IMG/VR virus record: IMGVR_UViG_3300029391_000001
Span: 19,880-83,879 of that record
From: a virus
Direction: 5' to 3' (one strand)
Length of the DNA: 64,000 bases
This document shows positions 1,070 through 37,264 of this stretch, one piece after another (within the stretch, counting starts at the first letter, position 1; each line of letters begins with the position of its first letter). Below the pieces are notes generated by a model that worked only from the letters and a program-made list of their open reading frames with translations, was not told the origin of the DNA and did no database searches. The translations under genes were made by a program, and so were the position numbers.

Positions 1070-1224
1070 TCTAGTTTAATAATTGCTATTTAATAAATTC
1101 GTGATTATCTAGTCTTACAGGTAGGTTAATAAAACAAATTAGATTAAGAATATCTTGATAATCTGGTTTATATCCCTTTTTGAGTTTTCTTAGAAAATCC
1201 TCATACCTTTTAATAGCCTTTCTC

Positions 1225-1956
1225 TTAAGAGCATCCACAACCTATACGTTTATGTCCATGGTGGTGATTATCACAGAATCCTCCACAGGTACGGAACATC
1301 GCTAGTAATCTCTCAGCCTCCATGAATTGTTTAAAGCATATTAAATAATCTATAATGTTAAGAGTCATCCATATGAAATCTCGAGCAAATATATCTGCTT
1401 CCTAATCTCTAGTTAGACACTTATTTAGTAAAGCATCAAAGAGTTTCTTACAATAATTAATGTAACACTACTACAAGTTTCCTGTAAAGAAAACATCTAC
1501 CTTACATTTTTTTATAGTAGTTCCTTCTATGTTTCGTTCAAGAACTTCTTTAACTGTACACTCTTCTAGCTTACCTTCTACTTCTTTATATAATTTTTCT
1601 CCATCAGTAACATAGATAGTCTCATAGTATTCCTTGTATTCGTCCGATGAATTTTCATACCATTTCATATTAGGAATAATGATATGGTCTACTACGTAAT
1701 AACCATCATCCTTGACCTTAAACATACACGAGTCTAAGTCTTCTGTATGGTCATTAAGTAGGACATCTATCAGAGTAGCATCACTTATACTAACTTTGAT
1801 GATAGTATTCAAGGTAGCACTCTCACTATACTTATAGGAGTCGTAAGAAGTTACTACCTCTACATCTTCATCAATATACTAGCCATATTCTTTTGAGAAA
1901 TCTTCTATCAGTATTTCCCCATTAATTTGGGTATGTATATCAATACTAAATTCCAT
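1225..1956 (-). CDS. hypothetical virion protein with C-terminal Cys/His cluster (CGGFCDNHHHGH...); TAG read as sense
   Basis: ATG 1954-1956, TAA 1225-1227, 732 nt in frame; contains ORF fragment 1471..1812; ~4 in-frame TAG. Confidence 0.45.
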
Positions 1957-1966
1957 ATTGTAATAA

Positions 1967-2698
1967 TTAAGACTCAATAGGCCACTAGCCATATTGAGCA
2001 GGGGTAGAAAAAGGTTTCCATTTACCTGCTTGTCTTATTCGTCTAGACATGAAGACGGAAGTAAATGATAAACTAATATCTTGAGGATAATCTGTCCAGG
2101 TATAAGACTATCCATCTGGAGTAGGAGGTAATTTATCAATCCCAGAGGAGGGCTGTCCATTCCAGTAGTAGTTATAGTCATAGGCTTTAATAGAGGTTAC
2201 TTCTGTGGTTTCTCTCCCGTCAGAATCTATATAGAGAGGATCTCCTTTTTTATTCGTTTTTTGTTTATACTCTATAACTGGTGTTATTCCCTCGGTTCTA
2301 GTATATATAGTCTATATAATAGTAGAGACATCACTCGCTACTATTTCATAGATAGTAGTTCCCTATGATTCATCAGCTCCCTAAAAAGTAAATTTAGTTC
2401 TTTTCCATATATATGGATTCTCTTCTGTTGGAAGCTCAAAAGTATCAGACCACTACTTACTTGATAGTTTTATTTCAGATTCATCGGCAGTATTAGCAGG
2501 GAGATAATGTATTTTAATAATAATACTATTAACTGCTTCACTTGAACCGGATAAATCTGATACCTACTTAAATAATTTTTTTAAGTCGTCTTCTACATTT
2601 GATTTAGAACCGGAAGCATTACTTATAATTACTGTCCCATCAGAGATAGGATAAATCTACTACTAATCTTTGTTGTATACAATTGTTCCAGTTGCCAT
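1967..2698 (-). CDS. hypothetical virion protein; contains three consecutive TAG codons
   Basis: ATG 2696-2698 right after portal stop; TAA 1967-1969; 732 nt in frame; plus-strand ctactacta at 2657-2665 = TAG TAG TAG in frame. Confidence 0.4.
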
Positions 2699-2699
2699 A

Positions 2700-4871: not shown

Positions 4872-5091
4872 AACATAAATTATGTTGTTCTGGAGGAAGT
4901 TTAGTAGCGTTATAATACTTAACTCTTTGCAACTTCCTACTTCTTAATTCTTCCTTAATAAATGGCAGAAATTCTTCGTCTGGTAAATCTGCTATTATTA
5001 CTAATGGCATTTCTGACCTATCAAAGTTAAAAGAGACTTTATACCCAACTGGGTCTAAACTCTCAATATCTAGTCCGCCTATATACTCCAT
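4813..5091 (-). CDS. small hypothetical protein overlapping the terminase 3' end and the portal 5' end
   Basis: ORF fragment 4813..5274 frame; TGA 4813-4815; internal Met at 5089-5091 is my guess for the real start. Confidence 0.3.
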   Translation of the reverse strand: MEYIGGLDIESLDPVGYKVSFNFDRSEMPLVIIADLPDEEFLPFIKEELRSRKLQRVKYYNATKLPPEQHNLCYEREGINRQDKRGYCGTCI

Positions 5092-7426
5092 TTTGTACAA
5101 GTCCCTCATATATTCTAGGATCACTTGTTTCAACTCTGTATGGGTCATCATATTCGTTTCTTTGCATATTAAGTTCAGGAGTTTTCTTAGTTGGAATAAC
5201 TCCAAATCTTTTAATTCCTCTCTCGTCGTAATAGTAACCAAAATCTTGGAACTATTCAACTTCTTTCTCCACAAGTACGGGCTGTCTTCCTGATAGCTCT
5301 TGGTCTGCTAACTCAGTCATACCTACAGCGGCTACAATATCATACTTACCCTTATTTTCATCATTATATGCAGTGAACTATTCTAGCATTTCTTCGAACC
5401 ATATAGTATGGCAATAGTCTTCTATAAAGGCGGCTGTTAAATCAGTATGCTATTCGATTATAGTTTTTGTAGCAGGAGTTCCATACTATTTAGTAGTTCC
5501 ATTTCTGACATTAGTTAGAGTAGCTCTTGGGCGCTTCATAAAATAGTTAAGGCATCCTTTTTCTCTAGCCCAAGTAACCATACCCATACGAGTAGCTTCT
5601 ATATTTATTTTACAATTATAATAGCGAGCTAAACACATAGCTATTTTATAGGCTTCTCTGATGTCTCCAGGTCTATCCTTGTACATAGCAACATACTGAG
5701 GGTCATTCATACCAAACGCACGTTTCTTAATCGTTATGCAGAAATCAGACGGGTCTCTGGTTTCCTTAGAAGTCTAATTCGCTCCAATATCAATACCGTC
5801 TATACCTGCTACGTATAAGTCTCGCATCTCTTTATAAACTGGAACTTCAAAATCCTAGCCATTATCTTCTGCCTCCTATCTAAGCTTTTCCATTTGTTCT
5901 TTATATAAGTCAGACCATATTGGATGCTCTAGAATTTTTACTTTGCCATTGCTGTTAGGAATCCATTTAAAACCATCAATATTATCCTAAGTATGTTTAT
6001 TATTTTTGTAAAAATAATCAATATAACCACATTCGGGTCTTGGGCCAATTTGTTTAAGTCTTATATTAGCTATCTATTCGGCAACTAAAATTTTATTAAA
6101 CTTATTAACACCTTCTAGATTAAATGCTTCTTCTGCATTCCAACAACGTTCAGCGCATTTCTTTAGGTAGTCTTCTGGTACAGCTAACAGATTATCTCGC
6201 TCCTCCTATAAGAATTTCTTATATTCCACAGTATTACATACTCCTCTGTGGTCCATAAATTCTGGATTCAAAGATTGTATAAAGTATGGAATAAAGAATC
6301 CACTCTCTATAGTAGTCCCATCCTAAGTCCAATTATGTCTAAATGGAAGAATCTTATATGCTCTTGGATTATAGTAAATCTTTTTTAAGCCCTCTAGAGG
6401 AGCACCCATATCACCGCCAGTACCTCCAAACAACATTGTTCCACGAGGCATACCTTGAACTTCACAAAGTTCTTGACCTTGTACCACAGCGGTATCAAGT
6501 CCAGGCCAGGAACCAGCTTCATCATATATTAATAAATCTACACGGTCTCCACGAATATTAGATGGTTTAGCTCCGTTAATTGCTACAACCTCAGATTTAA
6601 ATCCTACGTCTTCAAACTAACCATTTATTTTGATTTGTTTACCTGATTTCTTTCTCAAATCCTGGTCAATAAGTCGCAATTTAAAAAATCCTCCTCCAGT
6701 ACAGGTATTTAAGAATGTAAGAGCATTATCAAACTTACTAAAGGTACCCTTAAGGAAGGTATCATTAAAGCAAGTAATCATAACCCTACTTCTTCTAATA
6801 ACAGAGTACATACGAGCAGAAAGAGAGGCGTTTATTTCAGAGAATCCAATAGAACGAGCTTTCATTAAAGCTGCGTGCTTGTGTAGCACTCTAGCCATCT
6901 ATAGATAATGAAAGAACATATAATGTGATGCAAAGAATATTGGGAAGTCATTATCAGTACCCTCACCAGAGGCTTTCTGCTAGTCAATAGTAGGTAACTA
7001 ATAGAAATTTAAGAAGAAGTAATTATCTCCAGTAATGGTGTATCCATTAACTGTCATTCCATACTTACATCTTCTATATTGCTCTTTCCAAAATTCGTTG
7101 TACCGCTTACTATCTCTAAGGTAGGGACAGTATTGACCAGTTCGTTTATATACTTCCCTAGTCTCGGTAAACCAATCTGGATTAAAGTCCAATCCATGAG
7201 TTTCGTCAATAGGTCTGTATCCAGTTATTTCATAAGATAAGGTAGGGTCAAATACTTCTATTTTATCTCCTATTTTAACATCCCAATAGTCAGAATTTCT
7301 GACCCTTTCCTCTCTTATTTTCTATACTAATTCTCTAGCTTCTTTAGCATCCTCTTTCTATTCTTTTTCTCTTACCTAATCTACAATATTCTATATTTCT
7401 TCAGGTAATATCTTTTTTCTTGGCAT
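5063..7426 (-). CDS. terL: terminase large subunit; about 20 in-frame TAG codons
   Basis: Hand translation gives LLIYDEAG (Walker B-like), a GIDGIDIG nuclease-like motif, and continuous sequence across every TAG; ATG 7424-7426; TGA 5063-5065; 2364 nt in one frame. Confidence 0.75.
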
Positions 7427-7428
7427 AA

Positions 7429-7989
7429 TTAAAAGTCTCCTGGGTCAAAACCATCCACAGCTCCAGCTCTAACAGTAGATTGTTCAGTAAGTTCTTTCTT
7501 AACCTAGTCTTCTAGTGTTATGAGTTCTTCATGAACTTTGTGAAGGGTAGCCATTTCCTTCATTACTTTTTCAGCCTGGAATACTGGTTTGCCGTTATTA
7601 TCACGCTCATTTAAATCTACAATAGTTTCGAAATAATCAATAAACTAGTCTGCAGCTCTTTTAGCTGCTTCTAGTAATTTTATTGACTTGTTTGAATCTT
7701 GTAACGCTCTGTATTTCCTACAAGCTTCTCTAAATATAGGGTCATTAAATTCCGACTCTGTCAATCCAGAATCGCTAATAGCTTCGTCATGTCGTTCATG
7801 TTCCGAATACTAACTGTATGGACTTTTCCAGTCTATAGCTAAATAAATGTAAGATAGTTCTCTAGTAGCTCTATCCTTTTCTGCAGATTTATCCCTCTAG
7901 ATTAAAGCCTTAAATTCCTTAACTAGCAATATCTCTGGTTCATTTATTTCTAGCTATTTAGTTAAAGTGTTATAGTTAAATACATTCAT
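7429..7989 (-). CDS. putative terminase small subunit, by position only; 5 in-frame TAG
   Basis: Ends TAA 7429-7431, 2 nt before the terL ATG; 561 nt in frame; no recognisable motif. Confidence 0.4.
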
Positions 7990-8026
7990 AATCATTAATC
8001 ATTATCATACACATTAGATAATCTTA

Positions 8027-8605
8027 TTATTTCTTTTTCATTTTGGAACCGCACTTATTGACTTTCATTTTTGAGCCACAAGCGTCTTTCTTAGCATATT
8101 GTTTTCTGTCAGGAACCCATTTTCCTCCCTGGAAATTACCCTTATGTCCTTTATTGGCCATGATTTCCTAATCATTGTATTTATTGATTGATATAGAATC
8201 TCTTGAGGCTTCGTCTCTAGCAGATTTCATATCTTTCTTATACTAAGCTCTTCCAGCCTTAAATTTATCAACTTCATTAGCTTTCTTAGTAACTTTAGTT
8301 CCTTTTTGTGCTTTCTGGCAAGCTTTACAGATTCTACCGCCTTGCTTAAAATATACAAGCTCTTCTCCTTCTGGACATACTCCTTTTAGCTTCTTATAAT
8401 ACTCAAGCTTAGCTCCAAGCCTAGCCATTACTCCTCCTTGCATTTTCCGCATAAATTCCTGATACTTAGCTTTAATGCCGTCTTCACCTAATTGTTCAGC
8501 ATAAGCTTGTAAATCCTATTCAGATTGTACTTGTATTCCCTACGCAGCGGCATCTTGTATTAGATATGCCATAAATGCTTTTTGTAATTCTTTCTAGTTA
8601 GCCAT
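8027..8605 (-). CDS. lysine-rich hypothetical protein; 4 in-frame TAG
   Basis: ATG 8603-8605, TAA 8027-8029, 579 nt in frame; contains ORF fragment 8243..8452. Confidence 0.45.
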
Positions 8606-8760
8606 TACTCTTCTACTTTAATTAAATCCTTAGTATTAAACACTGCTTCCTACATAAGTCCGGAATCAGTAAACCATCTACATCTTAATCCTCGTAATCC
8701 TTGGTTATCTTTAAATAAAGCTGCTTCTCTTCTTAGAACAAGCATAACTGGAGAATGCAT
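8605..8760 (-). CDS. small hypothetical protein
   Basis: ATG 8758-8760; TAA overlaps the next ATG (TAATG); one in-frame TAG. Confidence 0.25.
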
Positions 8761-8815
8761 TACTTTACACTACCGTAAAGTAACACAATCCCCAGGCTTA
8801 AAATAAACTTTTTCA

Positions 8816-9418
8816 TCAATTGTTTCCATACTTCAATTCGTTTCTTCTTTCAGTTAGCTTTTCGTTAACTACAGCCATAATTCTGTTCTCATTAACTACA
8901 ACAAATCCAAACTTGTAGAACGGAACCATGCACTCGCTAGCTATTGTATAGAATACTATATCTCCAGGTTTTAGGAACTCACACTTGTACCCAACCTCAA
9001 TAACAGTACCCACTTTAATAAATTGTTGTTCTTCTTCTATTTCTCCTGTTTCATTAGATTTATATGTTGGAGCAAATCCACCTAAGTCTGTAATTAATCC
9101 ACTCTTAGTAGTTTTAATTTTTTGAAACGGATTTTGTTCGAAAGGTTTAATTAATGCATACCCATACATGGGCATAATTTCTACACCATTCATATCCTCA
9201 GATAATGATTTGGCGTAAGATTCTAAAGCTGCATTATGTTTAGAGAATTTATCTTCTAGTTCATCTACTGCTGTATTGAATCTTTCCTGTTTTTCTCTTA
9301 ATAAAGTTTTATCTGCAGCTTCTCCATTTACTATAAGGTGCTGTCCTGTACCTTCCATACCAGTTATAGCTAGTGCTAGTTTCTCATTACTGTTCAATTC
9401 TGTTCTTAAAGTTTCCAT
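8816..9418 (-). CDS. hypothetical protein; C-terminal half GroES/Gp31-like (KPGDIVFY)
   Basis: Intact ORF ATG..TGA; GroES-like motif pattern in C-terminal half. Confidence 0.4.
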   Translation of the reverse strand: METLRTELNSNEKLALAITGMEGTGQHLIVNGEAADKTLLREKQERFNTAVDELEDKFSKHNAALESYAKSLSEDMNGVEIMPMYGYALIKPFEQNPFQKIKTTKSGLITDLGGFAPTYKSNETGEIEEEQQFIKVGTVIEVGYKCEFLKPGDIVFYTIASECMVPFYKFGFVVVNENRIMAVVNEKLTERRNELKYGNN

Positions 9419-9426
9419 AATTCATT

Positions 9427-9765
9427 TTACCATTTACATAAATCACAATGTTCATCTTCTATTCTAGTTTTGTTCTCTAGTATACAACCACACTCCTCAC
9501 ATACTTCTCCAAATGAAGTCTGTAATTTATGAGGACAAGTATTACAAATATTTAATCTTGTGGTTGCTAAATCTTGATTAATTCCAAATATATGGAAATA
9601 TATACTCTTCAATATTACTAAAGGTTTAGTAAATATTGCTTTAATCCATTTCTTTGACATCTTTTCAGTAGGTTCTTGAGTCATAAGTATATAAGCCTTA
9701 GTAGGGTTAGCCATTACTGGAGTCCCATATAGTAATAAATTATTTACCATTTCTTCGCAGGACAA
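9427..9765 (-). CDS. Cys-rich zinc-ribbon protein
   Basis: CxxC...CxxC pairs. Confidence 0.45.
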   Translation of the reverse strand: MSCEEMVNNLLLYGTPVMANPTKAYILMTQEPTEKMSKKWIKAIFTKPLVILKSIYFHIFGINQDLATTRLNICNTCPHKLQTSFGEVCEECGCILENKTRIEDEHCDLCKW

Positions 9766-9959
9766 TGCTTCTTCTCATTAGGTATCTTTAATTCCAGTAG
9801 ACATCCGCATCCTTTTATATATCCTTCTTTTGGACCAATACTTATGTCATTGTTTTCTGGATTTAAATACAACTGTCCATTACATATTGCATCTTCTTGA
9901 TTACATATTGGACAGCGTCTACATATTTTCCATCTTTCTTCTATTTCCTCTAGTGTCAT
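9744..9959 (-). CDS. Cys-rich zinc-ribbon protein
   Basis: CRRCPIC...CxxC motifs. Confidence 0.4.
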   Translation of the reverse strand: MTLEEIEERWKICRRCPICNQEDAICNGQLYLNPENNDISIGPKEGYIKGCGCLLELKIPNEKKHCPAKKW

Positions 9960-9961
9960 AA

Positions 9962-10876
9962 TTAATATTCAATACGTTGACGTTTCTTTTTATTTTCTGC
10001 CAATATAGATTCTTTCTTGTAAAAAGAAAGCATTCTTATTACTTCATCTTTTAAATATGGTAAGTGATATACTGTCATGTTGTCACTGTGGTCGAAGTGT
10101 ACTAAAACTAAGTCTTCAATTTCAAATTCTGGGTTTTTCTTCTGAATCATCCAGGCGTAAGTACTTAGCTGAAGGGTATAATGCCAATAATTAACATCAT
10201 CTAAATTATTTAGAGGATACTTCATCTTAACTGATGTCTTAGTTTTAGAATTAAAGAAACTCTTTGTTTCTATTTTTTTATTAGTCTTCCAGTCGCCAAT
10301 AATTATCTTATTACCTCTTTTAACTAATAAGTCAATTTGTCCAGCTATTCTTAGTTTTCCGTCCTCAGATACTCTAGAGATTAGATACTCAGGATATACC
10401 CCATTCTCCAAATCTAGATTGTTATAGTCTTTTATACACTCAAACTTACCACCTATTTGATATTTACTTAGATCTATATCCTTCTTCTTTTTGTAAAAAG
10501 AGTTTTCCAAATCTGCATGGATTCTAGTTCCTCTCTCGCAAGAGTTTCTGTTCTCCATATCCCATGCATCTAAGATAGCTTGTTGTTCTTTATTAAACTC
10601 GTCTTCTGTAATGTTATGAAGTTCAAGTAGAACTTTGTCAAATTTCTTAGTATTCAGCAGAGATTTTTTCTCGATAGCCCAATCTTCTTTAGGTAGAAGT
10701 TTCTCTAGTGCTTTATAAGCTGACCAGAACTCTTTATCAAAGGGTTGGGTGAAAGAATGAATTAAAGTCGTTACAGATATAAATTTCTGTTCTGGCTTTG
10801 TAACATCATAATAAATATGAGCTTCCTCTTCGAAAGCTATGTTCCCATTTTGTTTTGTAATTTTACTTTTGTCCAT
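9962..10876 (-). CDS. PD-(D/E)XK family nuclease
   Basis: GQIDLLVKRGNKIIIGDWKT (D..E.K motif). Confidence 0.55.
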   Translation of the reverse strand: MDKSKITKQNGNIAFEEEAHIYYDVTKPEQKFISVTTLIHSFTQPFDKEFWSAYKALEKLLPKEDWAIEKKSLLNTKKFDKVLLELHNITEDEFNKEQQAILDAWDMENRNSCERGTRIHADLENSFYKKKKDIDLSKYQIGGKFECIKDYNNLDLENGVYPEYLISRVSEDGKLRIAGQIDLLVKRGNKIIIGDWKTNKKIETKSFFNSKTKTSVKMKYPLNNLDDVNYWHYTLQLSTYAWMIQKKNPEFEIEDLVLVHFDHSDNMTVYHLPYLKDEVIRMLSFYKKESILAENKKKRQRIEY

Positions 10877-10990
10877 TAGTCATAATTCATTTAATCATTT
10901 ATCACATTTATCTATATTTATTTGATACTTTTCAAGTATATTAATATTCTTTGTAAGATACAAATCAATAAATAATACATTATATTAAAA

Positions 10991-11333
10991 ATGTCTAATA
11001 TGACAAAAATGGTAACATTTGAATGTCCAATTTTTAAAAACGGGTCAGGCATTCATATTAAAGAGAAAAACAAAGGTAAATTTACTGCCTCTGCTAAGGC
11101 TGCAGGATAGTCTGTACAGGAACATGCTAAATCTGTACTAAACAATCCTAATGCTACTCCTCTTCAGAAGAAGCGTGCTAACTTTGCTAGAAACGTGGCT
11201 AAATGGAAACACGAAGATGGAGCTAAGATACATAAACCAAGTGGACATAGATCTATTCTAGATAATGGATGGATTCCTACTACTAGATTAAAGAAAGGAA
11301 ATTATGGATTAATTAAAACAAGAAAGCAATGAG
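10991..11333 (+). CDS. hypothetical protein; one in-frame TAG
   Basis: ATG..TGA in one frame verified codon by codon; TAG at 11108-11110. Confidence 0.45.
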
Positions 11334-11407
11334 CGCTGTAGTTAAATTAATTAAAGAATTTATACTTAAGATATATCTTTATTTACTATTTATATTTAAT
11401 AAGTAAT

Positions 11408-11599
11408 ATGGACTATAATAGAGCAACTCTTTATGCGGCTACTGGTCGTACTTTATTACTCCCTGGCTGGAAAGGGTATTTTTATTGGGACTATACTAAG
11501 AATGAATTAAATTTTAGAAATGGAGACTATCATTTAGATAACAAATAGCTCAAGGAGAAAGGAGTTATGGAACGTAATGATTGGTATTATATAATATGA
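11408..11599 (+). CDS. small hypothetical protein; one in-frame TAG
   Basis: Frame-consistent ATG..TGA. Confidence 0.3.
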
Positions 11600-11988
11600 T
11601 AATTAAAAATAATATTATACCGTTTGGAGGTTATAAAGTAATTAATCTGTTTGGATTAATATTTACTAAGTCGGATTTGACTGATGAGGATAAGAATCAC
11701 GAGAATATCCATTCAGTATAGATTTTAGAATGTGCAATAGCGTTTGCAATACTTATATCTATATTATTTGGATTAGAATGGGTATGGTTAGCTATTCCAT
11801 CTTTCTATATCTGGTATGGATTAGAGTATTTAATTATACGACTATTAAGACTTAAAGATTCTCAAAATGATTGCTACAGAGATGTAAGCTTTGAAGAAGA
11901 AGCTTATATGAATGAAGACAATTTACAGTATCTAGAAGGATAGAGAAAGATGTTTTCATGGATAAAATATCTAAAAGTTAATGCATAA
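11596..11988 (+). CDS. membrane protein with HEXXH motif, putative zincin-like metallopeptidase; two in-frame TAG
   Basis: HENIH motif plus hydrophobic helices; ATGA overlap with the upstream gene. Confidence 0.4.
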
Positions 11989-12032
11989 CAAAATAGGCGA
12001 ACTTAGACAATTAAGTCTAGGCTCGCCTATTT

Positions 12033-12245
12033 TTATTTACTATTATACGTACAAGTGATTCTGTTTGGCTCTTCCCACCAAGGTTTATCTGAAAGTGGAG
12101 TTCTGATGCTATTGGGCCAATTTATAATTGGAGTAGTTTCCTCTACTATAGCCTCCATTATTTTAAATAATGTATCCAAGTCTAGCTCTGGAAGCAGCTC
12201 ATGAATATTAGTTATTGTTTTCTTATAATTTATCATACCCTTCAA
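12033..12245 (-). CDS. hypothetical protein
   Basis: ORF track. Confidence 0.35.
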   Translation of the reverse strand: MKGMINYKKTITNIHELLPELDLDTLFKIMEAIVEETTPIINWPNSIRTPLSDKPWWEEPNRITCTYNSK

Positions 12246-12591
12246 AAGTGTCGTTAATAATTGCTTTCTCTATTGTAGTATCTTTATATAAACCATGTTG
12301 TAGTATATTTCTTACTTGATGGTCTACTTGATTCCATATATCTAATAATATAGAAGAATCATCTGAAAGACTATATTGTGGATAGCTAGCCCTTAAACTG
12401 CTAAGTACTTTGCCATTAATGTAAATGTCAAATACGAAATTTTTTATATCATCTGTAGTTTCTCCAGAAATTCCTGCAGCTCTTTGTAAAAGTTTAAGAG
12501 CCTTTTCATATACTTCCCTTTCTTCACGCTCAATTCTTGAAGAATTGAACATCATCATATTTGCGGCTACTGACATATTAGTACGATACAC
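12223..12591 (-). CDS. hypothetical protein
   Basis: ORF track. Confidence 0.4.
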   Translation of the reverse strand: MYRTNMSVAANMMMFNSSRIEREEREVYEKALKLLQRAAGISGETTDDIKNFVFDIYINGKVLSSLRASYPQYSLSDDSSILLDIWNQVDHQVRNILQHGLYKDTTIEKAIINDTFEGYDKL

Positions 12592-12740
12592 TTAGCTTAT
12601 TTAAGTTGTCTAGATAATCTAAGAACCATTGTTCGTTTTGTTTTCCTTCTTCTACAATAGTATTAATTAAAGATTCTGTAGCTAATAGTGTTATTTCTGC
12701 TAGCTCCTCTAATTCCGATTTAGTAAGTTCGTTATATTTT

Positions 12741-13055
12741 TCAATCAAGTTTAACATAATCCATCCAGTCTTTTATATATGATTTACATTCTTCCAAATC
12801 TGGATAGATACTTGTTATAGAGCATCCAGTTTTCGGATTTTTAAAGTGGTGCATCTTAGCCTCTTCTTTTTTCTCCTCTTCTGTATTTCTATTTAATGTT
12901 CTATTCCAATAGTTGTACTTTTCATCTAACATTTCCATATTACATTCCTCTAATATTTTCATATTAGGGTTATTCATTATCTTGTCGTATTTTCTCTTTA
13001 AATTAGAGACTTTGACAACATCATTTCCATTTAATACAACTGCACACTGTTTCAT
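12741..13055 (-). CDS. hypothetical protein
   Basis: ORF track. Confidence 0.4.
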   Translation of the reverse strand: MKQCAVVLNGNDVVKVSNLKRKYDKIMNNPNMKILEECNMEMLDEKYNYWNRTLNRNTEEEKKEEAKMHHFKNPKTGCSITSIYPDLEECKSYIKDWMDYVKLD

Positions 13056-13279
13056 TTCAATACCTTATAAGTACATATCTTGCCTATCTGTTTTCCTTGA
13101 ATTGTTATTTGCGGAAGAAAATAGCAGGCTTGATTCTCAAATTCTTGAGGTACAAAGATATAATCAAACTTACTTCCAACTACCTTCTCACAAACTTTAT
13201 TCCAATCGTCTCCCTCTTCTATAATAAGAGTTTTAGCTCCTGTTGGAGTTACTACATAATTCTCATTTAATTTTATCAT
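13052..13279 (-). CDS. hypothetical protein (ORF trimmed to internal Met)
   Basis: The 5' extension in the ORF track is translation of the suppressor tRNA T-arm. Confidence 0.35.
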   Translation of the reverse strand: MIKLNENYVVTPTGAKTLIIEEGDDWNKVCEKVVGSKFDYIFVPQEFENQACYFLPQITIQGKQIGKICTYKVLK

Positions 13280-13296
13280 AACTATTAATTTTGGCG

Positions 13297-13368
13297 TTGC
13301 CCTACTAGGATTCGAACCCAGACTAAATGATTTAGAGTCATCTGTGCTGACCATTACACCATAGGGCA
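13297..13368 (-). tRNA. suppressor tRNA, anticodon CUA (reads TAG); Gln-type body
   Basis: Full cloverleaf: acceptor tgcccta/tagggca (U1:A72), D-arm gtgt/gcac, anticodon stem gatga/tcatt, loop cuCUAaa, T-arm ctggg-ttcgaat-cctag. Nearly identical in architecture to tRNA-Gln(TTG) at 27771. Confidence 0.8.
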
Positions 13369-13506
13369 GTAACTTATTTCTCTTTTAGAGATTTATTTTC
13401 TGCTGCCAATTTCTCTAGTTCTTTTCTTAATTGTTCATTTTCGTGAAATAAAGCCTGCATAGTAGCGTTGATATTAGCTAATAGTATTCTCATTTGAGCA
13501 ACCTAT

Positions 13507-13908
13507 TCATACATAAGCTTTCAGTTGTTCAATTCTCTTTTTAGCTATATCTGACAATGCCATTTTAAATTTAGCAATACCAGCTCTTACTGTTTCTAAC
13601 TTGCCGCTTTCTAAGCATTCTTGTATTTTATGAACTTCAAGCTCTCCTAGATATTCGCATACATCTATAAATAAATCATCATCTAGAGATTCTAAATATT
13701 TCTGGAATTGGTCTACCTCTTTATTAGCTAGACAGCTTTCTTCCTTCTATCTTTCATAAGATATTAATAAGAACAAAGAATCGTCGGTAGATTCGGACTT
13801 AATAGTTAGCCCATTACCAGACATATAATATTCTTGATTCGTATTAATTGCCTCAACTAGCTATTTAAACTAGTCCTAATTTAACAATGTTTCTAAGTCT
13901 GTAATCAT
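13507..13908 (-). CDS. hypothetical protein; 4 in-frame TAG
   Basis: Hand-translated ATG 13906-13908 to TGA 13507-13509; 402 nt in frame. Confidence 0.4.
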
Positions 13909-14070
13909 AATTGTTTTCTTTTTAGTTATATACAACAATAACCTCCGAAAAGTTAAACGCAAAGTTAAAAAATTCTAATTCAAATATTATACATATTTTA
14001 TATATTAAGGGGAAAGTCGGTACAGGTACTTTATATAAATAGCCCCCTGGGGTTATTATAAATTCCGACT

Positions 14071-14649
14071 TTAAAAATTGGTGATGTTATTATATAGGTC
14101 AGAAATTAGCTTTTTAAATTCTTCTGTAGACATATCATTTTTCATGGCATTTACTCTATTGGTTGTAATTACAACATTTCCTTCTATATATCCTAAATTA
14201 CTATCTATTCTATCTAAGGAATAGTCTTCGTAATTTTCTGGCACCAATCCAGTGTAATAGTCTTTATACTCTTGTTTTAATAGTAGTTCTTTTATATATT
14301 CTAACGTTAGATTGTATTCTAATACTTTACTTCTTCTTCTCTTACACTGGGAAGACTTCTTTAATAGAAATTGAGCTATCATATTATCTTGAGTTTTTTC
14401 ATTAGATTCTAATTTCTTAATATTCTTATTTGTTTTGTATCCAAATTCTGTCTTGATTGCATTTTCTGGTTTTAGTCCTTTCACTATATTAAATTCGCCA
14501 ATTATATTAAATAAACTATCCTCTTCTAATGTCTCTAAGATTCCATTTACTGAACGTAAAAAATTCCATCCATTTTCGTTCCCATTTACTCTCCTAGCCA
14601 TTTCTTTCTTAGAAAGGTCTTCTGTTATATTTTGTTCTACACATCTCAA
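14071..14649 (-). CDS. HNH-like endonuclease (weak)
   Basis: SLDRID...GY.EGN...N..K pattern. Confidence 0.35.
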   Translation of the reverse strand: MRCVEQNITEDLSKKEMARRVNGNENGWNFLRSVNGILETLEEDSLFNIIGEFNIVKGLKPENAIKTEFGYKTNKNIKKLESNEKTQDNMIAQFLLKKSSQCKRRRSKVLEYNLTLEYIKELLLKQEYKDYYTGLVPENYEDYSLDRIDSNLGYIEGNVVITTNRVNAMKNDMSTEEFKKLISDLYNNITNF

Positions 14650-14912
14650 TAAGAAATCTTTCTGAGAATTAGAAAGTCTAATATAAATTCTGGACAGTCT
14701 ATATGTTTTAATATTTTATATCTATTATAAAATCCGTTTATTGTGTGGTTTTCTATATATTTCAGTTCTACTAAATCTTTTAACATCTGCGGAATGTTTT
14801 TAGTAGCAAATCCAAATTTATGATTTAATTCTGACCCACTAAAATGAGAAAATTCTCCGTTTTCTTCATAGGCGTTTATTACCGCCAGTAGTACATTTAA
14901 ATTTCTTTTCAT
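14646..14912 (-). CDS. hypothetical protein
   Basis: ORF track. Confidence 0.35.
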   Translation of the reverse strand: MKRNLNVLLAVINAYEENGEFSHFSGSELNHKFGFATKNIPQMLKDLVELKYIENHTINGFYNRYKILKHIDCPEFILDFLILRKISY

Positions 14913-17271: not shown

Positions 17272-17736
17272 ATGAACACAGTAGAAATTAACAGCTTAAA
17301 GAAGTATTCAGAGTTTACAACAACATTTCGTATTCCATTCAAAAAGGCAAATGATGTAGAAGCTAAATGCTATACGCCTATGGATGTAATTGACGCTTGG
17401 AAAGAAGTATGCATACAGGCGTTAGAAATGAGAATGGAGGCGTGTCTGTTAATGTTGCTCAAGAACAGAGATCGAGTGATAGAATCTGACGAAGAATGTG
17501 TTGTTTTCAGAAAACCCAACGGACATCTTCATTTCTTCAACCACTCCAGCTTTCAGGCTATGGAAGCTCTAGTAGTAGCTCTTGTAGTAGAGGGTCCTAT
17601 AGTACTCGACTCCCTCCTAGTAGACCTATTATTGAAGGCTTTGTACTGGATTCCAGAAAAGTTGAAAAAAGATCATCAAGAATTTGGATTTGGAGAATTA
17701 ATAAGCTGTTTGACCTGCCTAGCCTACAAAGCTTAG
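17272..17736 (+). CDS. hypothetical protein
   Basis: ORF track. Confidence 0.45.
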   Translation: MNTVEINSLKKYSEFTTTFRIPFKKANDVEAKCYTPMDVIDAWKEVCIQALEMRMEACLLMLLKNRDRVIESDEECVVFRKPNGHLHFFNHSSFQAMEALVVALVVEGPIVLDSLLVDLLLKALYWIPEKLKKDHQEFGFGELISCLTCLAYKA

Positions 17737-17899
17737 GCTGAATAAAAAACTCAATAACTTCCCAAGACATTGAGGGCACCAGTTTCTTATGAATAAATAC
17801 TCTGAAAAGCCTATATGGGCAGGACAGAGCCTCGAAAGTCTTAGACCAGAGAGATAGTAAGTTTTAGGTGTAAAATGCGATTAATAAAAGAAAAAGATT

Positions 17900-18151: not shown

Positions 18152-18341
18152 GTGGTTGGCAAAGAATTTCCCAGAACTTGATATTCCAAGAAATTACGTG
18201 TTTATAAATGATACAAGATGTAAGGAGATTGGATATCGTCAGTATGTTAAACGTATGTATGATCCAACTAGAGACAGATTCTTAGACATATACAGAGATT
18301 CTGGAGATAACATGATTACCGGACTAATTAAAATCCTCTGA
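18096..18341 (+). CDS. hypothetical protein
   Basis: ORF track. Confidence 0.35.
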   Translation: MESLIYLLILQRRDERTIEWLAKNFPELDIPRNYVFINDTRCKEIGYRQYVKRMYDPTRDRFLDIYRDSGDNMITGLIKIL

Positions 18342-18406
18342 TGAGTCTTTGAAAATTAAGACGAAACTACCCATCTTTGGGTAGTCAGGATTAAAAAGAA
18401 AAAGAA

Positions 18407-20525: not shown

Positions 20526-20705
20526 CCAACTTTAAATAATTAAGCTATGATAAATGTAGACGAATTAAGAAACAAAAAGTAGCTCGGAGAGCGTATAGCC
20601 ATTGGTGAATTATCAAAATATGGATTAGATATTTTATTACCAATGTCTGACAATCTACCATTTGATTTTGTTATATATTATAATAACAAGTTTTACAGAA
20701 CTTAG

Positions 20706-20918
20706 GTGAAAACTACTGCGAGTAAAACTGTAAATAACTCGTTGAACTTTAGTTTAACAAGTAATAATTATAACAAAGGGACCGTTCACAAATACAACGA
20801 GGATGAAATAGATATTATGATATGTTGCGACCTTCATAACATCTATATATTTCCAGAATGTGATGTTGCTAATAGAAATTCTATTACTATTAGGGAGGAA
20901 CCTCCAGCTAATAATTAG
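20706..20918 (+). CDS. hypothetical protein
   Basis: ORF track. Confidence 0.35.
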   Translation: MKTTASKTVNNSLNFSLTSNNYNKGTVHKYNEDEIDIMICCDLHNIYIFPECDVANRNSITIREEPPANN

Positions 20919-21071
20919 ACAAAAGGTATAAACTTTGCAAAAGATTGCATCATATCTATAGAAAGATTAAATTATACTTTCTCTAAGATAGAGAAATAAT
21001 TCCCTATTAATAGGGAAGTCTTTTTCTTTTATTCTGCTAGTAAACATTTGTTGTGAAACACGTGTTTGCAT

Positions 21072-28742: not shown

Positions 28743-28819
28743 AGGGACGTATCCCCTCAAGCTTATACCTTGTAGAAAGGGTAGTTGGTCGCACGTGGGT
28801 TCAAACCCCACCGTCCCTA
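28743..28819 (+). tRNA. non-canonical 77-nt tRNA-like gene (perfect acceptor and T-arm; anticodon hairpin with 8-10-nt loop uuGUAGaaag)
   Basis: agggacg/cgtccct acceptor, gtggg-ttcaaac-cccac T-arm; no standard D-arm or 7-nt anticodon loop; a tRNA 5'-half-like fragment (ggaccta ta gctcagccaggtcagagc) lies just upstream at 28699-28742. Confidence 0.35.
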
Positions 28820-28841
28820 CAACTTTTATTTATTAAGTAAT

Positions 28842-30446: not shown

Positions 30447-30520
30447 GTCTGGATGCCTGAGTGGTCTAAGGGAACGGTCTGCAAAACCGTGTTTCGTGGG
30501 TTCGAATCCCACTCCAGATT
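30447..30520 (+). tRNA. tRNA-Cys(GCA)
   Basis: Loop cuGCAaa; U73. Confidence 0.7.
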
Positions 30521-30540
30521 CTACACTAATTTATTTGCCT

Positions 30541-31911: not shown

Positions 31912-31983
31912 GTAGGTATAGCACAACGGTTAGTGCATCGGCTTGCCATGCCGAGGATGTGAGTTCGATTCTCATTACCTACT
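31912..31983 (+). tRNA. tRNA-Gly(GCC)
   Basis: Loop uuGCCau. Confidence 0.7.
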
Positions 31984-32167
31984 CAAAATTTAAGTTTTAT
32001 GAAAATAAAGTGTACAGTATGTAATAAAGAATTTTATTATCCAGACCACCATGTGTTTATCTGTAGCGAATGTGCGGAGAAGGCTCTAGGTAGGGAAATA
32101 ACTGATAAGGATATTAATGATTCATTATTTAATATCCCATTTAGAGAGAAGTACTTTAAATCTTAAT

Positions 32168-32252
32168 ATCCGTGTGGGTGAATGGTTTAGCCATCAGTCT
32201 GCAAAACTGAAAAGAGAAATCTTTAATGAGGGTTCGAATCCCTCCACGGATT
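32168..32252 (+). tRNA. type II (long variable arm) tRNA with GCA anticodon and U73; Cys-like identity in a Ser/Leu-type body
   Basis: Perfect acceptor atccgtg/cacggat, T-arm gaggg-ttcgaat-ccctc, anticodon stem tcagt/actga, loop cuGCAaa, variable-arm hairpin aaaga-gaaa-tcttt. Confidence 0.55.
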
Positions 32253-32272
32253 CTAATTTTAAATTTAAAAAT

Positions 32273-32908
32273 ATGGCATATATTTATTGCATTACAAATT
32301 TAATTAATAGCAAGCGATACGTAGGAAAAACTACTACTTCTATAGAAGAGCGCTGGAAGGAACATTGTTATGACTTTTAGAAAGAAAGATGCAACAAAAG
32401 ACCTTTATATGATGCCATGAATAAGTATGGTGTTGAGAACTTTATGATAGAGGAATTGGAATATGTAGATAGTAACTCTGAATTATCTGAAAGAGAAATC
32501 TATTGGATAAAAGAGCTAGGAACTTATGGTTCTAATGGGTACAATGCCTCTAAAGGAGGAGATGGCACTATTCTATACAATCATAGTGAAATTGTAGAAT
32601 TAGCTAGATTGGGATATACTAGTTCTTAGATACAAGAAAAAATAGGGTGCTGTAAAGACACTATTTACAAAGTTTTGAAGGCAAATAATATAAAAATTAG
32701 AAAAAGTAACGCAAAGTTAATTGCTTAGTATGACTTAGCAGGTAATTTTATACAGGTATTCTTTGGTTCCAGAGAAGCTTAGGAATGGTTAATTAATAAC
32801 GGAATTACTGACAATAAATCTGCATAGAGTCATATTATAGGATGCTGTAAGAATAAAACCAAATCATAGTATGGCTACATTTGGAAATATCTTCCAGAGC
32901 CTATTTAA
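32273..32908 (+). CDS. GIY-YIG homing endonuclease with C-terminal NUMOD-like DNA-binding region; 5 in-frame TAG
   Basis: YIYCITN...KRYVGKT GIY-YIG motif; verified codon by codon to TAA 32906-32908; AQYDL matches, as I recall, a conserved Y-Q-YDL segment in GIY-YIG relatives when TAG = Q. Confidence 0.7.
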
Positions 32909-33054
32909 TCTTTAAATCACTGTTTCGACATTTTCAGTCTAAATGCCGTGTCTGGAGACGTTACCAACCAGTCGTGCTATACGGTTAGAATAGTCCGTGC
33001 CTCACTGGTGATAGAGGCATCCCTGGGTAGCGGATGTAAAGTAGCTGCCAATAT

Positions 33055-33132
33055 CGTGGAGTAGAGAAGTGGTCATCTCGCTAGGCTCATAACCTAGAAA
33101 TCGTCATAAACGGTTCGAATCCTACCTCCGCA
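33055..33132 (+). tRNA. tRNA-Met(CAT)-like, possibly initiator type (C1.A72 mismatch), with degenerate T-stem
   Basis: Acceptor cgtggag/ctccgca, D-arm gaga/tctc, anticodon ctagg-cuCAUaa-cctag; T-loop ttcgaat present but stem weak and 6 extra nt. Confidence 0.4.
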
Positions 33133-33377
33133 ACGAAACTCCTTTTGTGGCTCTGAATTAGATTAATTATTAACAATTTTAAACTTTGATGTTATGAAGA
33201 AAGTAATTAATGTTGTGAAGAAAGCTGCTAAGTGGTATTTTGAACAGAGTTCTAAGAGCTATACATGGTTAGTTTCTGGAACTATTCCGCCTCCTTATAG
33301 AGGTCTAGAGTAAAGATACTACTAAAAGGTAAGTACCAAAGGGGTACTTATCTACACCCGTGGAGAAAATTAACTAT

Positions 33378-33978: not shown

Positions 33979-34051
33979 GGGCCGTTAGCTCAAATGGCTA
34001 GAGTGCTGGTTTTGCACACCGGAAGATAGGGTTCGAGTCCCTGCGTGTCCA
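33979..34051 (+). tRNA. tRNA-Ala(TGC), G3.U70 present; acceptor base imperfect
   Basis: Loop uuUGCac; T-arm taggg-ttcgagt-ccctg. Confidence 0.55.
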
Positions 34052-34255: not shown

Positions 34256-34319
34256 GCGGGATGATAGCAGAGGTAGCTAGTCAGGCTCATAACCTGAAGG
34301 TCGTCGGTTCGAATCCCGT
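34256..34319 (+). tRNA. truncated or aberrant tRNA-Met(CAT)-like element
   Basis: Good acceptor gcgggat/atcccgt, D-arm, anticodon tcagg-cuCAUaa-cctga, but only 15 nt where variable loop plus T-arm should be. Confidence 0.3.
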
Positions 34320-34352: not shown

Positions 34353-34778
34353 ATGGATTTCAAGAATCTTACAAAGGAATCTCTTCCGAAAGAATTTCAG
34401 GAGAGAATCGAACGTTTCAATCGTTTGTTCGTTGAAGCTGGTGATGGTACATTTGAAGAAAATGACCTATTTGGTTATGAAATGGCTTGTATAAAGCAAG
34501 CCCTATCATTCTCTGAGTTTTTCAAAGAAATGAGTCTAGAGGAATGTAAAGCCTTCTATGAGAAATATCCTAGCTTATTTGAGCTGATTGAGGCTATCAA
34601 AGACAAACTTCCGTACTTTGATAATGGTCATAGTGGAAACTCTATGAGCATGAGTTGGATGCTATACAGGTGTTATAAGGAGAAACCTGAACTTGTTCCT
34701 TATATGCACGGTTGTTTAGCCCAACTTGTTGGGGACGAGGGCTATCATGATAACCGTTCTGATGTTCCAAAACTATGA
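34353..34778 (+). CDS. hypothetical protein
   Basis: ORF track. Confidence 0.45.
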   Translation: MDFKNLTKESLPKEFQERIERFNRLFVEAGDGTFEENDLFGYEMACIKQALSFSEFFKEMSLEECKAFYEKYPSLFELIEAIKDKLPYFDNGHSGNSMSMSWMLYRCYKEKPELVPYMHGCLAQLVGDEGYHDNRSDVPKL

Positions 34779-35284
34779 GTGTAATACAACAAGTTTATTT
34801 AGCTGAAGCTGGTTATTCTATTTACATAAAGGGAATTAAACCAGATAAGGATAATGAATGTTCTGGTGAGATTACTATAAATGGTAATCCCACTAGATTA
34901 GAGAGAAAAGAACGCTATCATATTGATGGCAGTATGCTTGAGCATAAAGATTCAGAAATGTGTCGTAGTTGCTGGGAAGAACTTAATGGAATTGGTAACA
35001 AAACATTAGGTTATTATACATCTGGGCAGAAGTACTTATCATCTAAATGTCAAGAAATAAGGACTAATGCTCGTAGAGTATTAGAAAGTTCCGAACGTGA
35101 GAAAGTATGTCAATATTGTCATAATCATGAATTTGATGCAATACTTGAAGTACATCATCTTAAAGGAATATTAGAATTTGACGAAGACACTCTTATTAAG
35201 GAGATTAACAACGAGAATAATTTAGTATGGTTATGTCCGAATCACCATATTATGTTAGAGAAGGGTTTAATTAGTCTGGAGTAA
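34775..35284 (+). CDS. HNH endonuclease
   Basis: CxxC...EVHHLKG...N.LVWLCPNHH. Confidence 0.65.
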   Translation: MSVIQQVYLAEAGYSIYIKGIKPDKDNECSGEITINGNPTRLERKERYHIDGSMLEHKDSEMCRSCWEELNGIGNKTLGYYTSGQKYLSSKCQEIRTNARRVLESSEREKVCQYCHNHEFDAILEVHHLKGILEFDEDTLIKEINNENNLVWLCPNHHIMLEKGLISLE

Positions 35285-35511: not shown

Positions 35512-36186
35512 ATGACTAGATTAGAAAAGTATTTAGTAGCAACTGCTACTGAGATTATCGAAGCGGAAACAACTGTTTCTCGCTACTTTGTCATTGGAAA
35601 CGTCAAAGTTAGAGTATCAGACCATTTAAGTAAAATGAGTGATGCAGACTTACAAGTGATTATTCCATTGAACGGAGGGACTAAGTATATAGTTACTGTT
35701 AAGGATAGTCCTGGAAAATTTCTTGTATGGAATGCAACTCAAATAAAAGACTTTATTCCTTCATTGCAGATTATTAAGGGCTTGAAGGAAGGAGTGCAAC
35801 TTAAGCCAAAACCTAAAGACTCTGCAGTTCAGAAGATTCAGCTAGCATTAAATAATAGTAATACCGATGGAGGTTCGTTAACGTTTGATGGTACTATTAT
35901 TGAGTCTAGATTGAAAGAAAAGCAACTTACTTCCAAACAGCGGGAAGTTTTCAGGAGAACTAAATCTACTTGGGATATTTCTCAGATTGGGACATTACCC
36001 AGTATGATTAAAGTAGATTTAGGATTGTCAAATGGTTCTGTAAACGAAGATGTGCAGATATTTCTAACTTGTACATCTTTAACCTACAAAGAAATTCTGA
36101 ACATTTATAAAATAATAGTTGTTGATAACCGTATGGTTCCAACTATTAAACTGTTGCAAGAAGCTTATAGCTTGATTGTGCAGTAG
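35512..36186 (+). CDS. hypothetical protein
   Basis: ORF track. Confidence 0.45.
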   Translation: MTRLEKYLVATATEIIEAETTVSRYFVIGNVKVRVSDHLSKMSDADLQVIIPLNGGTKYIVTVKDSPGKFLVWNATQIKDFIPSLQIIKGLKEGVQLKPKPKDSAVQKIQLALNNSNTDGGSLTFDGTIIESRLKEKQLTSKQREVFRRTKSTWDISQIGTLPSMIKVDLGLSNGSVNEDVQIFLTCTSLTYKEILNIYKIIVVDNRMVPTIKLLQEAYSLIVQ

Positions 36187-36189
36187 GAT

Positions 36190-36261
36190 AGCGCCATCAT
36201 CTAATGGTTAGGATTCAGGCTTTTCACGCCTGCCATACGGGTTCGAATCCCGTTGGCGTTA
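36190..36261 (+). tRNA. tRNA-Glu(TTC)
   Basis: Loop uuUUCac. Confidence 0.7.
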
Positions 36262-36642: not shown

Positions 36643-37068
36643 ATGAAAACGTTAAATGAGATTTTAGACAATTACAAAGACTATGCCGTAGTTCTCGATG
36701 ACCGTTTCGGTTCTAGATTAGCAAAGTTTTTAACAGAAGAGCAGTTAGAAAAAATAGGCTTCAAGTACGATGGTGATGAGCCTTATCCAGAGCCTAAGGA
36801 ATGGACTAGAGGGAATATCCTAGAGCAACTTAAGTCTGACGTAGAGTTTGGTTTTGAGAAGGCTCTAGACCAGAGAGGCATTTCAGCTAGCCTAATGTTC
36901 TACGTGGTACTAAGATGGAATCAAGTTCTAGAAGAGGGCTTAGAGAATTATCCTGAAGAGAATTATGCTATGTATGGGTTGCCTTTGTTTAAGGCTACTG
37001 CTGTAAAGTACGGATGGGAGAATACTATAGGCGACGATAATGGGGACGAAGAGTTCTACAATGAGTAG
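36643..37068 (+). CDS. hypothetical protein
   Basis: ORF track. Confidence 0.45.
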   Translation: MKTLNEILDNYKDYAVVLDDRFGSRLAKFLTEEQLEKIGFKYDGDEPYPEPKEWTRGNILEQLKSDVEFGFEKALDQRGISASLMFYVVLRWNQVLEEGLENYPEENYAMYGLPLFKATAVKYGWENTIGDDNGDEEFYNE

Positions 37069-37264
37069 CGCTATGAAGGAATCTTCTATACTTAAAGCAA
37101 TTTCTGACGCTATTGAAGAATACGAGGAAAATCAACAAAGACGAATAGACCTGTTAGAGAGTAAAATTCTGCTATTTGAGAGAGAAAGGGAGGCTTTTAT
37201 TCGGCATTTGAGAGAAGGAAACATTCAATTATTAAAGGATTATCTAGGAATTAAAGATGAGTAA
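37040..37264 (+). CDS. hypothetical protein
   Basis: ORF track. Confidence 0.35.
   Translation: MGTKSSTMSSAMKESSILKAISDAIEEYEENQQRRIDLLESKILLFEREREAFIRHLREGNIQLLKDYLGIKDE

Follow-up and report, generated by a model that had tools for sequence, protein, structure and literature searches.

A TAG-containing homing endonuclease gene in the tRNA array of a crAss-like gut phage

Results

A reading frame interrupted by TAG lies between tRNA genes

Here we describe a predicted free-standing GIY-YIG homing endonuclease gene located at 32273-32908 (+) of a 64,000-nucleotide (nt) stretch of viral DNA (IMG/VR record IMGVR_UViG_3300029391_000001, positions 19,880 to 83,879), referred to throughout as the window. 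The source is a crAss-like gut phage with a genome of ~190 kb, and related IMG/VR contigs measure 185-193 kb. A GenBank search for close relatives returned a sole match, the unannotated 6,969-bp fragment MT837398. All coordinates are window positions unless a relative is named, and TAG was read as glutamine (Gln) for the recoded translation.

The gene belongs to an array of 20 tRNA genes spanning 20376-41697, as detected with ARAGORN. Along the plus strand, tRNA-Gly(GCC) (31912-31984) is followed by a 55-amino acid (aa) open reading frame (ORF) that resembles a zinc ribbon and contains no TAG (31999-32166; Zn_Ribbon_YjdM, E 5.5e-6, below the cut-off) and then by a tRNA-Cys(GCA) with a long variable arm (32168-32253). 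The endonuclease gene begins 19 nt past this tRNA, and the next tRNA gene downstream is tRNA-Met (33055-33134). Besides the ARAGORN call, the long-arm tRNA-Cys is supported by its fold and by an Rfam tRNA match of 56 bits; it is 86 nt long, carries U73 and has a class-II-like variable arm made of a 5-bp stem and a GAAA loop. A second, ordinary tRNA-Cys is encoded at 30447-30521. A preliminary description of the locus, made from the sequence alone, had placed the gene in a tRNA array between a tRNA(GCA) and an odd structured region. The array and the tRNA(GCA) are where it put them, but the structured region did not hold up: the folding energy of the interval 32909-33054 is close to that of shuffled sequence (z = -0.30), and Rfam yields no match there.

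Translation proceeds in a single frame from ATG 32273 to TAA 32906-32908, giving 211 sense positions and a terminal TAA. Six internal stops are present and every one is TAG, at codons 36, 119, 152, 170, 185 and 199 (32378, 32627, 32726, 32780, 32825 and 32867). Within the 211 codons there is no in-frame TAA or TGA, and the frame is uninterrupted throughout, with no frameshift required. Retranslation matched exactly the six positions and the reading through to TAA 32906 in the preliminary description, whose title miscounted the TAG codons as five. Under the standard code the locus breaks into the fragments 32117/32273-32380 and 32417-32629 (70 aa), and no ORF of at least 35 aa follows the second; the C-terminal half is lost, as had been described.

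Based on the trinucleotide composition of the window, the chance of finding 175 codons free of TAA and TGA past the first TAG is ~1e-4. A chance origin of the open frame is in any case irrelevant because there is homology evidence downstream of the TAG codons, where the sequence shares 60-75% aa identity with hundreds of full-length homologues of 209-214 aa. This is therefore a clear case in which gene calling with the standard code destroys a real gene, and recoding must be applied even inside the "early" half of such phages, which otherwise follows the standard code.

An intron-encoded endonuclease was considered and rejected, since the gene lies between intact tRNA genes and no Rfam intron family matched within 20000-42000 at E values up to 0.1. 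A scan for sigma-70 promoters and terminators around the gene returned counts at or slightly above those of shuffled sequence and no interpretable signal; Bacteroidota and phage promoters fall outside such a scan.

The recoded protein is predicted to be an intact modular endonuclease and is under purifying selection

The catalytic domain occupies aa 1-91 (32273-32545, +) and contains TAG codon 36. It is identified by Pfam GIY-YIG PF01541 (residues 1-91, E 6e-13, 49.3 bits against a cut-off of 22.6), by alignment with I-TevI and by Foldseek. Over a longer span, residues 1-206 match PHROG 314, "homing endonuclease" (E 4e-31). The catalytic domain of I-TevI (1MK0/1LN0) was the sole solved relative found by sequence (phmmer, E 1.4e-9), and residues Y5, Y16, R27, H31, E75 and N91 align with Y6, Y17, R27, H31, E75 and N90 of I-TevI. 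All six are invariant across an alignment of 43 homologues. A database search yielded 982 homologues; among those listed, most are 209-214 aa long and 60-75% identical over their full length. One near-identical entry, P0001, represents 267 member sequences and is already translated with TAG as Gln.

The structure was modelled with AlphaFold2 (AF2) on P0002, a colinear homologue with 75% identity (mean predicted local distance difference test score, pLDDT, 86.8). Searched with Foldseek, the N-terminal domain of this model matched the fold of I-TevI 1LN0 at a TM score of 0.80 and probability 1.0 (matches ranged over TM 0.73-0.80). A low-confidence disordered linker at aa 98-101 leads to a predicted three-helix helix-turn-helix (HTH) module at aa 104-137 (32582-32683, +; helices 104-112, 117-124 and 128-137), which contains TAG codon 119 and matched a Tn3 resolvase HTH with a Foldseek probability of 0.72. 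Beyond it, a beta-beta-alpha-alpha-beta module is predicted at aa 150-206 (32720-32890, +) with pLDDT of 90-96, and the remaining TAG codons (152, 170, 185 and 199) all fall within it. For the C-terminal tail, the match to I-HmuI 1U3E had a Foldseek probability of 0.97 but an E value of 0.1, and is weak. The model supports a modular tail of predicted DNA-binding type, and the DNA-binding C-terminal half proposed in the preliminary description is thereby supported in substance, as a prediction.

Against three paralogues, the ratio of non-synonymous to synonymous substitution (dN/dS) was 0.15-0.17 along the whole length of the gene. For codons 120-211, the comparisons gave a saturated dS and a dN of 0.35-0.45; the part of the gene downstream of the TAG codons is therefore translated and under selection. 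As judged from sequence, these comparisons confirm an intact GIY-YIG homing endonuclease gene maintained by purifying selection.

An early-block gene has the TAG density of late genes

The window is divided into two halves with distinct use of TAG. Minus-strand genes at 1-8829 include the large terminase and the portal gene, the terminase being ~27% identical to those of named crAss-like phages. These late genes contain 71 TAG in 2,388 codons (3%), 28 of them in the portal gene and 19 in the terminase gene, and TAG makes up 51% of the sum of TAG, CAA and CAG. Plus-strand genes from 17.9 to 64 kb include an ATPase, a DnaB-like helicase and a nicotinamide phosphoribosyltransferase; among the early plus-strand genes of at least 100 aa, no internal TAG was found in 8,584 codons, and several of these genes apparently terminate in TAG. 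Recoded late genes with early genes compatible with the standard code are the published pattern of TAG-to-Gln crAss-like phages (10.1101/2021.08.26.457843; PMC12386605 for zeta crAss-like phages).

An amber-suppressor tRNA with anticodon CUA is encoded at 13296-13368 (-; ARAGORN). It has U1-A72, G2-C71, A73 and the D-arm in common with the phage tRNA-Gln(UUG) (27771-27843), from which a Gln identity of the suppressor may be inferred. This agrees with metaproteomics of crAss-like phages in which TAG is read as Gln (PMC9523058).

The endonuclease gene sits in the early TAG-free block yet has a late-gene density of TAG. Its 6 TAG in 211 codons represent six of its eight Gln-type codons, a density that differs from that of early genes (Fisher, p = 2e-7) and is indistinguishable from that of late genes (p = 1.0). 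In alignment columns of the family that hold a TAG, Gln is found in other members at 12.8%, against a background of 2.6% (5-fold). The TAG at codon 152 aligns with a family-invariant Gln, encoded by CAA or CAG in 14 of 23 other distinct genes and by TAG in 4, and codons 36 and 119 are CAG or CAA in close paralogues. Without read-through, only a 35-aa peptide lacking E75 and N91 would be produced. Because TAG codon 36 precedes these two residues, active protein would be made only during suppression by tRNA(CUA); the suppressor dependence proposed in the preliminary description follows directly from the sequence.

The endonuclease is part of a 931-bp mobile cassette

Comparison with relatives defined a cassette at 31986-32916 (+; 931 bp) that comprises the zinc-ribbon ORF, the long-arm tRNA-Cys and the endonuclease gene. 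Its left boundary is the 3' end of tRNA-Gly(GCC). The right junction corresponds to the discriminator base of an ordinary tRNA-Cys in relatives without the segment, equivalent to window position 32917 and 8 nt past the endonuclease stop codon. In L015, L018 and three further contigs that lack the segment, 164 bp separate tRNA-Gly from TCACTGTTTCGAC, and these 164 bp consist of a tRNA-like gene with an oversized anticodon loop followed by an ordinary 75-nt tRNA-Cys that is unrelated to the long-arm form. The L015 allele comes from IMG/VR 3300045988_061744 and occupies about 9460-10010 of that locus. The comparison with phages lacking the insertion that the preliminary description had proposed thus succeeded, with sharp junctions on both sides. 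The interval 32909-33054 was also considered as part of the element, which was not supported; it is kept in relatives without the endonuclease and therefore lies outside the cassette.

Counting junctions in IMG/VR, 14 contigs carry the endonuclease junction and 5 an exact endonuclease-free junction. The gene is found in 14 IMG/VR contigs (intact in 13) and in MT837398. A base-by-base alignment of 14 IMG/VR loci shows 99.6-100% identity over 31986-32908 (99.7% in MT837398), and none of the related contigs compared falls below 99.8% in the endonuclease gene itself. Just left of 31985, where tRNA-Gly has its 3' end, identity drops to 83-85% in 5 of the 14 loci. A near-identical copy next to sequence that has diverged by 15% gives the region a mosaic identity and indicates recent spread.

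The long-arm tRNA-Cys travels with the endonuclease. Its exact sequence was found in 16 IMG/VR contigs, 13 with this endonuclease and 2 with a chimeric derivative; the locus of the sixteenth (L102) stops short of where the endonuclease would be expected, so linkage could be checked in 15. Exceptions to the intact arrangement are L019, in which the endonuclease is frameshifted and the linked tRNA has been lost, and L020 and L021, which carry a chimera of this endonuclease and a paralogue. The zinc-ribbon ORF differs from a 100-aa version in the relatives examined (L003 5592-5894) by a 135-bp in-frame deletion.

Several side observations concern the same segment. The zinc-ribbon deletion lies between short direct repeats (TTATTAT..AGACCA), and a G run inside the extra zinc-ribbon segment has a one-base difference between L005 and L003. 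The tRNA-like gene that follows tRNA-Gly(GCC) in endonuclease-free relatives (L015 9621-9701, L018 9621-9701 and L016 9823-9905) combines normal acceptor, D and T arms with a loop or insert of ~15 nt at the anticodon. The ARAGORN call is Leu(aag) for L018 and Tyr(ata) for L016, with none for L015; the gene may encode an aberrant tRNA, for instance one with an intron.

No second copy of the endonuclease was found in the window. Other intergenic sites of the array are taken by five paralogous lineages of this phage group, each of which carries 2-6 TAG codons. Among ~11 distinct genomic contexts of the subfamily, 8 lie within 95 nt downstream of a tRNA gene, and two of these adjoin tRNA(CUA).

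Two further sets of relatives bear on this family. L001 (2864-3581) and L003 (6862-7579) contain a second GIY-YIG paralogue, 50% identical and with 3 TAG codons, right after tRNA-Met; its insertion point corresponds to window 33133/33134 and it is bounded by a 16-bp repeat of 33118-33133. L020 and L021 resemble recombinants between the endonuclease described here and this tandem paralogue, and tRNA-Met has been lost from both. Distant subfamily members in L030 (2671-4667) and L027 (about 5900-6837) lie 29 nt and 95 nt downstream of tRNA(CUA), respectively, and in L030 two paralogues flank the suppressor tRNA. One possibility is that endonucleases of this kind mobilise suppressor tRNA genes.

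Other features of the window

Just past tRNA-Lys, a 150-aa ORF at 20547-20999 (+) matches Pfam PDDEXK_5 (E 8e-21) and contains 3 TAG and no CAA or CAG. It is the only other clear TAG-bearing case in the array and, going by its sequence, probably represents a second amber-dependent selfish nuclease in the early block. A 169-aa ORF at 34775-35284 (+), also in the array, has a C-terminal HNH_2 match with E 1.6e-4, just above the cut-off, and is a possible third endonuclease of the array, one that would not be amber-gated.

Three plus-strand ORFs of the early block (17272-17745, 35512-36204 and 36643-37095) contain a single TAG a few codons ahead of TAA. Under the standard code these probably end at the TAG, with a short extension added once suppression is active. 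The gene that directly precedes the suppressor tRNA on the minus strand (13507-13908) has 4 TAGs, three of which fall in codons 1-16, and no TAG is present in the neighbouring genes of the 8816-14912 block.

Additional RNA-like elements were observed within the array. A weak tmRNA-like Rfam match lies at 28743-28822 (+; 23.8 bits, below the gathering score), and two tRNA-model matches at 33979-34051 and 34264-34319 (+; 37 and 30 bits), possibly degenerate or unusual tRNAs, have no ARAGORN call. A megablast search with the first 20 kb of the window found nothing beyond matches of 38-55 bp in crAss-like phages. A stretch of ~50 bp at 17741-17795 is 96-100% identical to unannotated sites in many otherwise unrelated crAss-like genomes (cr113_1, cr115_1, cr53_1 and others), and a second short match of the same kind lies at 18330-18367.

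Discussion

Taken together, these results support a model, which we judge likely, in which the gene at 32273-32908 encodes a free-standing GIY-YIG homing endonuclease housed in the tRNA array of a crAss-like phage that reads TAG as Gln, with its synthesis tied to suppression. In this model, upon co-infection with a cassette-free relative the enzyme would cut the endonuclease-free allele at or near the interval between tRNA-Gly and tRNA-Cys. The target allele would resemble that of L015 and L018, with tRNA-Gly(GCC), the tRNA-like gene, the ordinary tRNA-Cys and the sequence downstream. Recombinational repair from the carrier genome would then copy in the 931-bp cassette, such that the resident tRNA pair is replaced and flanking DNA is co-converted. 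Terminase, portal and other late genes would need the same suppression and the surrounding early genes would not. With TAG codon 36 placed ahead of E75 and N91, and with this late-gene-like requirement, translation would be coupled to the time when suppression is possible, presumably late, even in the event of co-transcription with the tRNA array.

Several observations weigh against this model. The positions of the TAG codons mostly differ between paralogues, which contain 2-9 of them with only codon 36 in common; because they are mostly not conserved, unshared positions fit drift in a TAG-tolerant gene as well as they fit selection for gating. The putative HNH endonuclease at 34775-35284, within the same array, has no TAG, so amber gating is no general rule for selfish nucleases here. 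The suppressor most resembles phage tRNA-Gln by a marginal difference (71%, compared with 70% for tRNA-Thr), and the sequence does not reveal a target site. On the protein side, the structural model is that of homologue P0002 and not of the exact protein. Pfam HTH_23, HTH_28 and HTH_7 all matched below their cut-offs, as did NUMOD1 at aa 150-170 (16.6 bits against a threshold of 22.8). The preliminary description had called the product a complete GIY-YIG plus NUMOD-like enzyme and suggested searching the recoded translation with hidden Markov models for both. Such a search bears out the GIY-YIG domain, and the NUMOD label is not formally earned because its score falls under the Pfam threshold.

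The strongest alternative retains an active homing endonuclease and denies the TAG codons any regulatory role. They would have arisen by drift, for example from CAG, AAG or GAG, in an element long resident in amber-recoded phages and not needed early, an account to which we attach a lower but still substantial probability. Besides the scatter of TAG positions among paralogues and the absence of TAG from the neighbouring HNH-like gene, the other residues found at the TAG columns of homologues are glutamate, Gln or lysine, whose codons are single-nucleotide neighbours of TAG, and the density of TAG is indistinguishable from that of late genes, so that the gene would simply have a late-gene-like codon profile. 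Against this, the lack of internal TAG in 8,584 early codons indicates that TAG is counter-selected wherever early translation matters, and all five paralogous lineages have gained TAG codons, at different positions. Moreover, six TAG codons block synthesis in the absence of suppression whatever their origin. Drift and gating are not mutually exclusive.

A more far-reaching version of the gated-endonuclease model can be considered, in which the gene is a selfish element locked to one genetic code and coupled to tRNA innovation, working only in amber-suppressing phages, inserting beside tRNA genes, the suppressor tRNA(CUA) among them (L027 and L030), and bringing along non-standard tRNA alleles such as the long-arm tRNA-Cys. 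We regard this as doubtful. If it were true, this family of endonucleases would drive the reshuffling and spread of tRNA genes among gut phages, and the suppressor tRNA by which recoding is established, or variants that resist host defences, could be among the genes spread.

It is improbable that the endonuclease mainly serves the phage, either by amplifying or exchanging tRNA genes such as the long-arm tRNA-Cys or by allowing escape from tRNA-cleaving defences, as with T6 SegB. Septu is overcome when SegB amplifies a segment with tRNA-Tyr, and SegB homologues associate with tRNA genes genome-wide (PMC13096335). In keeping with such a role, the cassette exchanges an ordinary tRNA-Cys for a structurally different one linked to the endonuclease, and paralogues adjoin many different tRNA genes, including the suppressor. 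However, neither the window nor any relative examined shows tandem amplification of the segment, no defence that targets tRNA-Cys was linked to these hosts here, and the ordinary tRNA-Cys at 30447-30521 is present anyway; the limited resemblance to T4 SegB, discussed below, also counts against it.

Homing endonucleases often degenerate after fixation, the copy in L019 is visibly broken and the cassette is already present in most sampled relatives (14, compared with 5-7 without it), yet a decaying or domesticated remnant, whether a pseudogene with real stops or a DNA-binding protein that no longer cuts, is very improbable because the catalytic residues are all intact and invariant, dN/dS is ~0.15 over the whole length including past the TAG codons, TAA and TGA are missing from all 211 codons, 28 TAGs are read as sense in the portal gene of this phage and a copy at least 99.8% identical has recently spread into backgrounds 15% diverged next door.

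Overall, the interpretation offered in the preliminary description is essentially right, and the locus belongs to known kinds of system; nothing in it overturns current understanding. The natural alleles with and without the segment define the 931-bp cassette and its junctions, and so provide a concrete substrate for questions of cleavage, of homing and of a function for the linked long-arm tRNA-Cys. Useful by-products of the analysis are the cassette with its empty site, the linkage to the long-arm tRNA-Cys and the siting of the subfamily beside tRNA and suppressor tRNA genes.

Comparison with known systems

The genomic setting is shared with code-15 crAss-like phages (PMC9523058; PMC12386605), which have a tRNA(CUA) and divide their genes by strand, one strand bearing structural and packaging genes rich in TAG and the other a tRNA array and replication genes free of it. 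Their complement of several homing endonuclease genes also varies from one close relative to the next. The present case differs in that these descriptions do not single out amber-coded free-standing endonucleases in the tRNA array.

That recoded stops could delay the production of a homing endonuclease has already been proposed for the TGA-recoded intron endonuclease of Agate phage (10.1101/2021.08.26.457843), and the gene described here would add a free-standing, TAG-based example to this idea. Both are homing endonucleases in the early region of a recoded gut phage and both contain in-frame recoded stops. In Agate phage, which belongs to another clade, TGA is read as tryptophan and the endonuclease lies in an intron inside an early protein gene, whereas here TAG would be read as Gln and the gene is free-standing between tRNA genes of a crAss-like phage.

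I-TevI provides the closest solved catalytic domain by both sequence and fold, with the catalytic residues conserved, and its modular build, in which a DNA-binding tail ends in a helix-turn-helix-type element, resembles the one predicted here. Translation of I-TevI is limited to late times (PMC2988022). I-TevI differs in being encoded within an intron (T4 td), whereas the present gene is intergenic and no group I intron was detected around it. By sequence, the tail of the protein described here lacks a zinc finger of the I-TevI type, and the order of modules is also distinct, the predicted HTH being followed here by the beta-beta-alpha-alpha-beta module.

By analogy, the closest functional counterpart is T4 SegB. 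The segB gene lies between tRNA genes, and its product, which recognises a T-psi-C motif, promotes the inheritance of the region that holds them (PMC2330249); SegB-like genes are associated with tRNA genes more widely, including in Bacteroidota phages (PMC13096335). Both proteins are free-standing, about 210-220 aa long, and combine a GIY-YIG domain with a C-terminal DNA-binding region, a predicted one in the present case. Both genes lie directly downstream of a tRNA gene in a phage tRNA array, the T4 layout being tRNA-Ile, 41 nt, segB, 5 nt and tRNA-Arg. In both cases related phages without the gene have a different tRNA complement at the site, and the inherited unit would be a whole segment that includes tRNA genes.

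The two systems differ in host phage, T-even in one case and crAss-like in the other, and in the means of control. T4 endonucleases are limited to middle or late times through promoters and hairpins that sequester the ribosome-binding site (PMC2988022); where a late promoter and such a hairpin restrict expression in T4, amber codons would do so here. Orthology to T4 SegB was considered and rejected, since BLASTP gave 27% identity (E 8e-11, 19% gaps) that is convincing in the N-terminal catalytic domain only, and the gene is therefore better described as an analogue or distant relative. Full-length homologues with 30-34% identity occur in Enterococcus and Staphylococcus phages, where the name "putative SegB" is the depositors' annotation. 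Read in this way, the locus would extend the partnership between SegB-type endonucleases and tRNA arrays to the large crAss-like phages of the gut.

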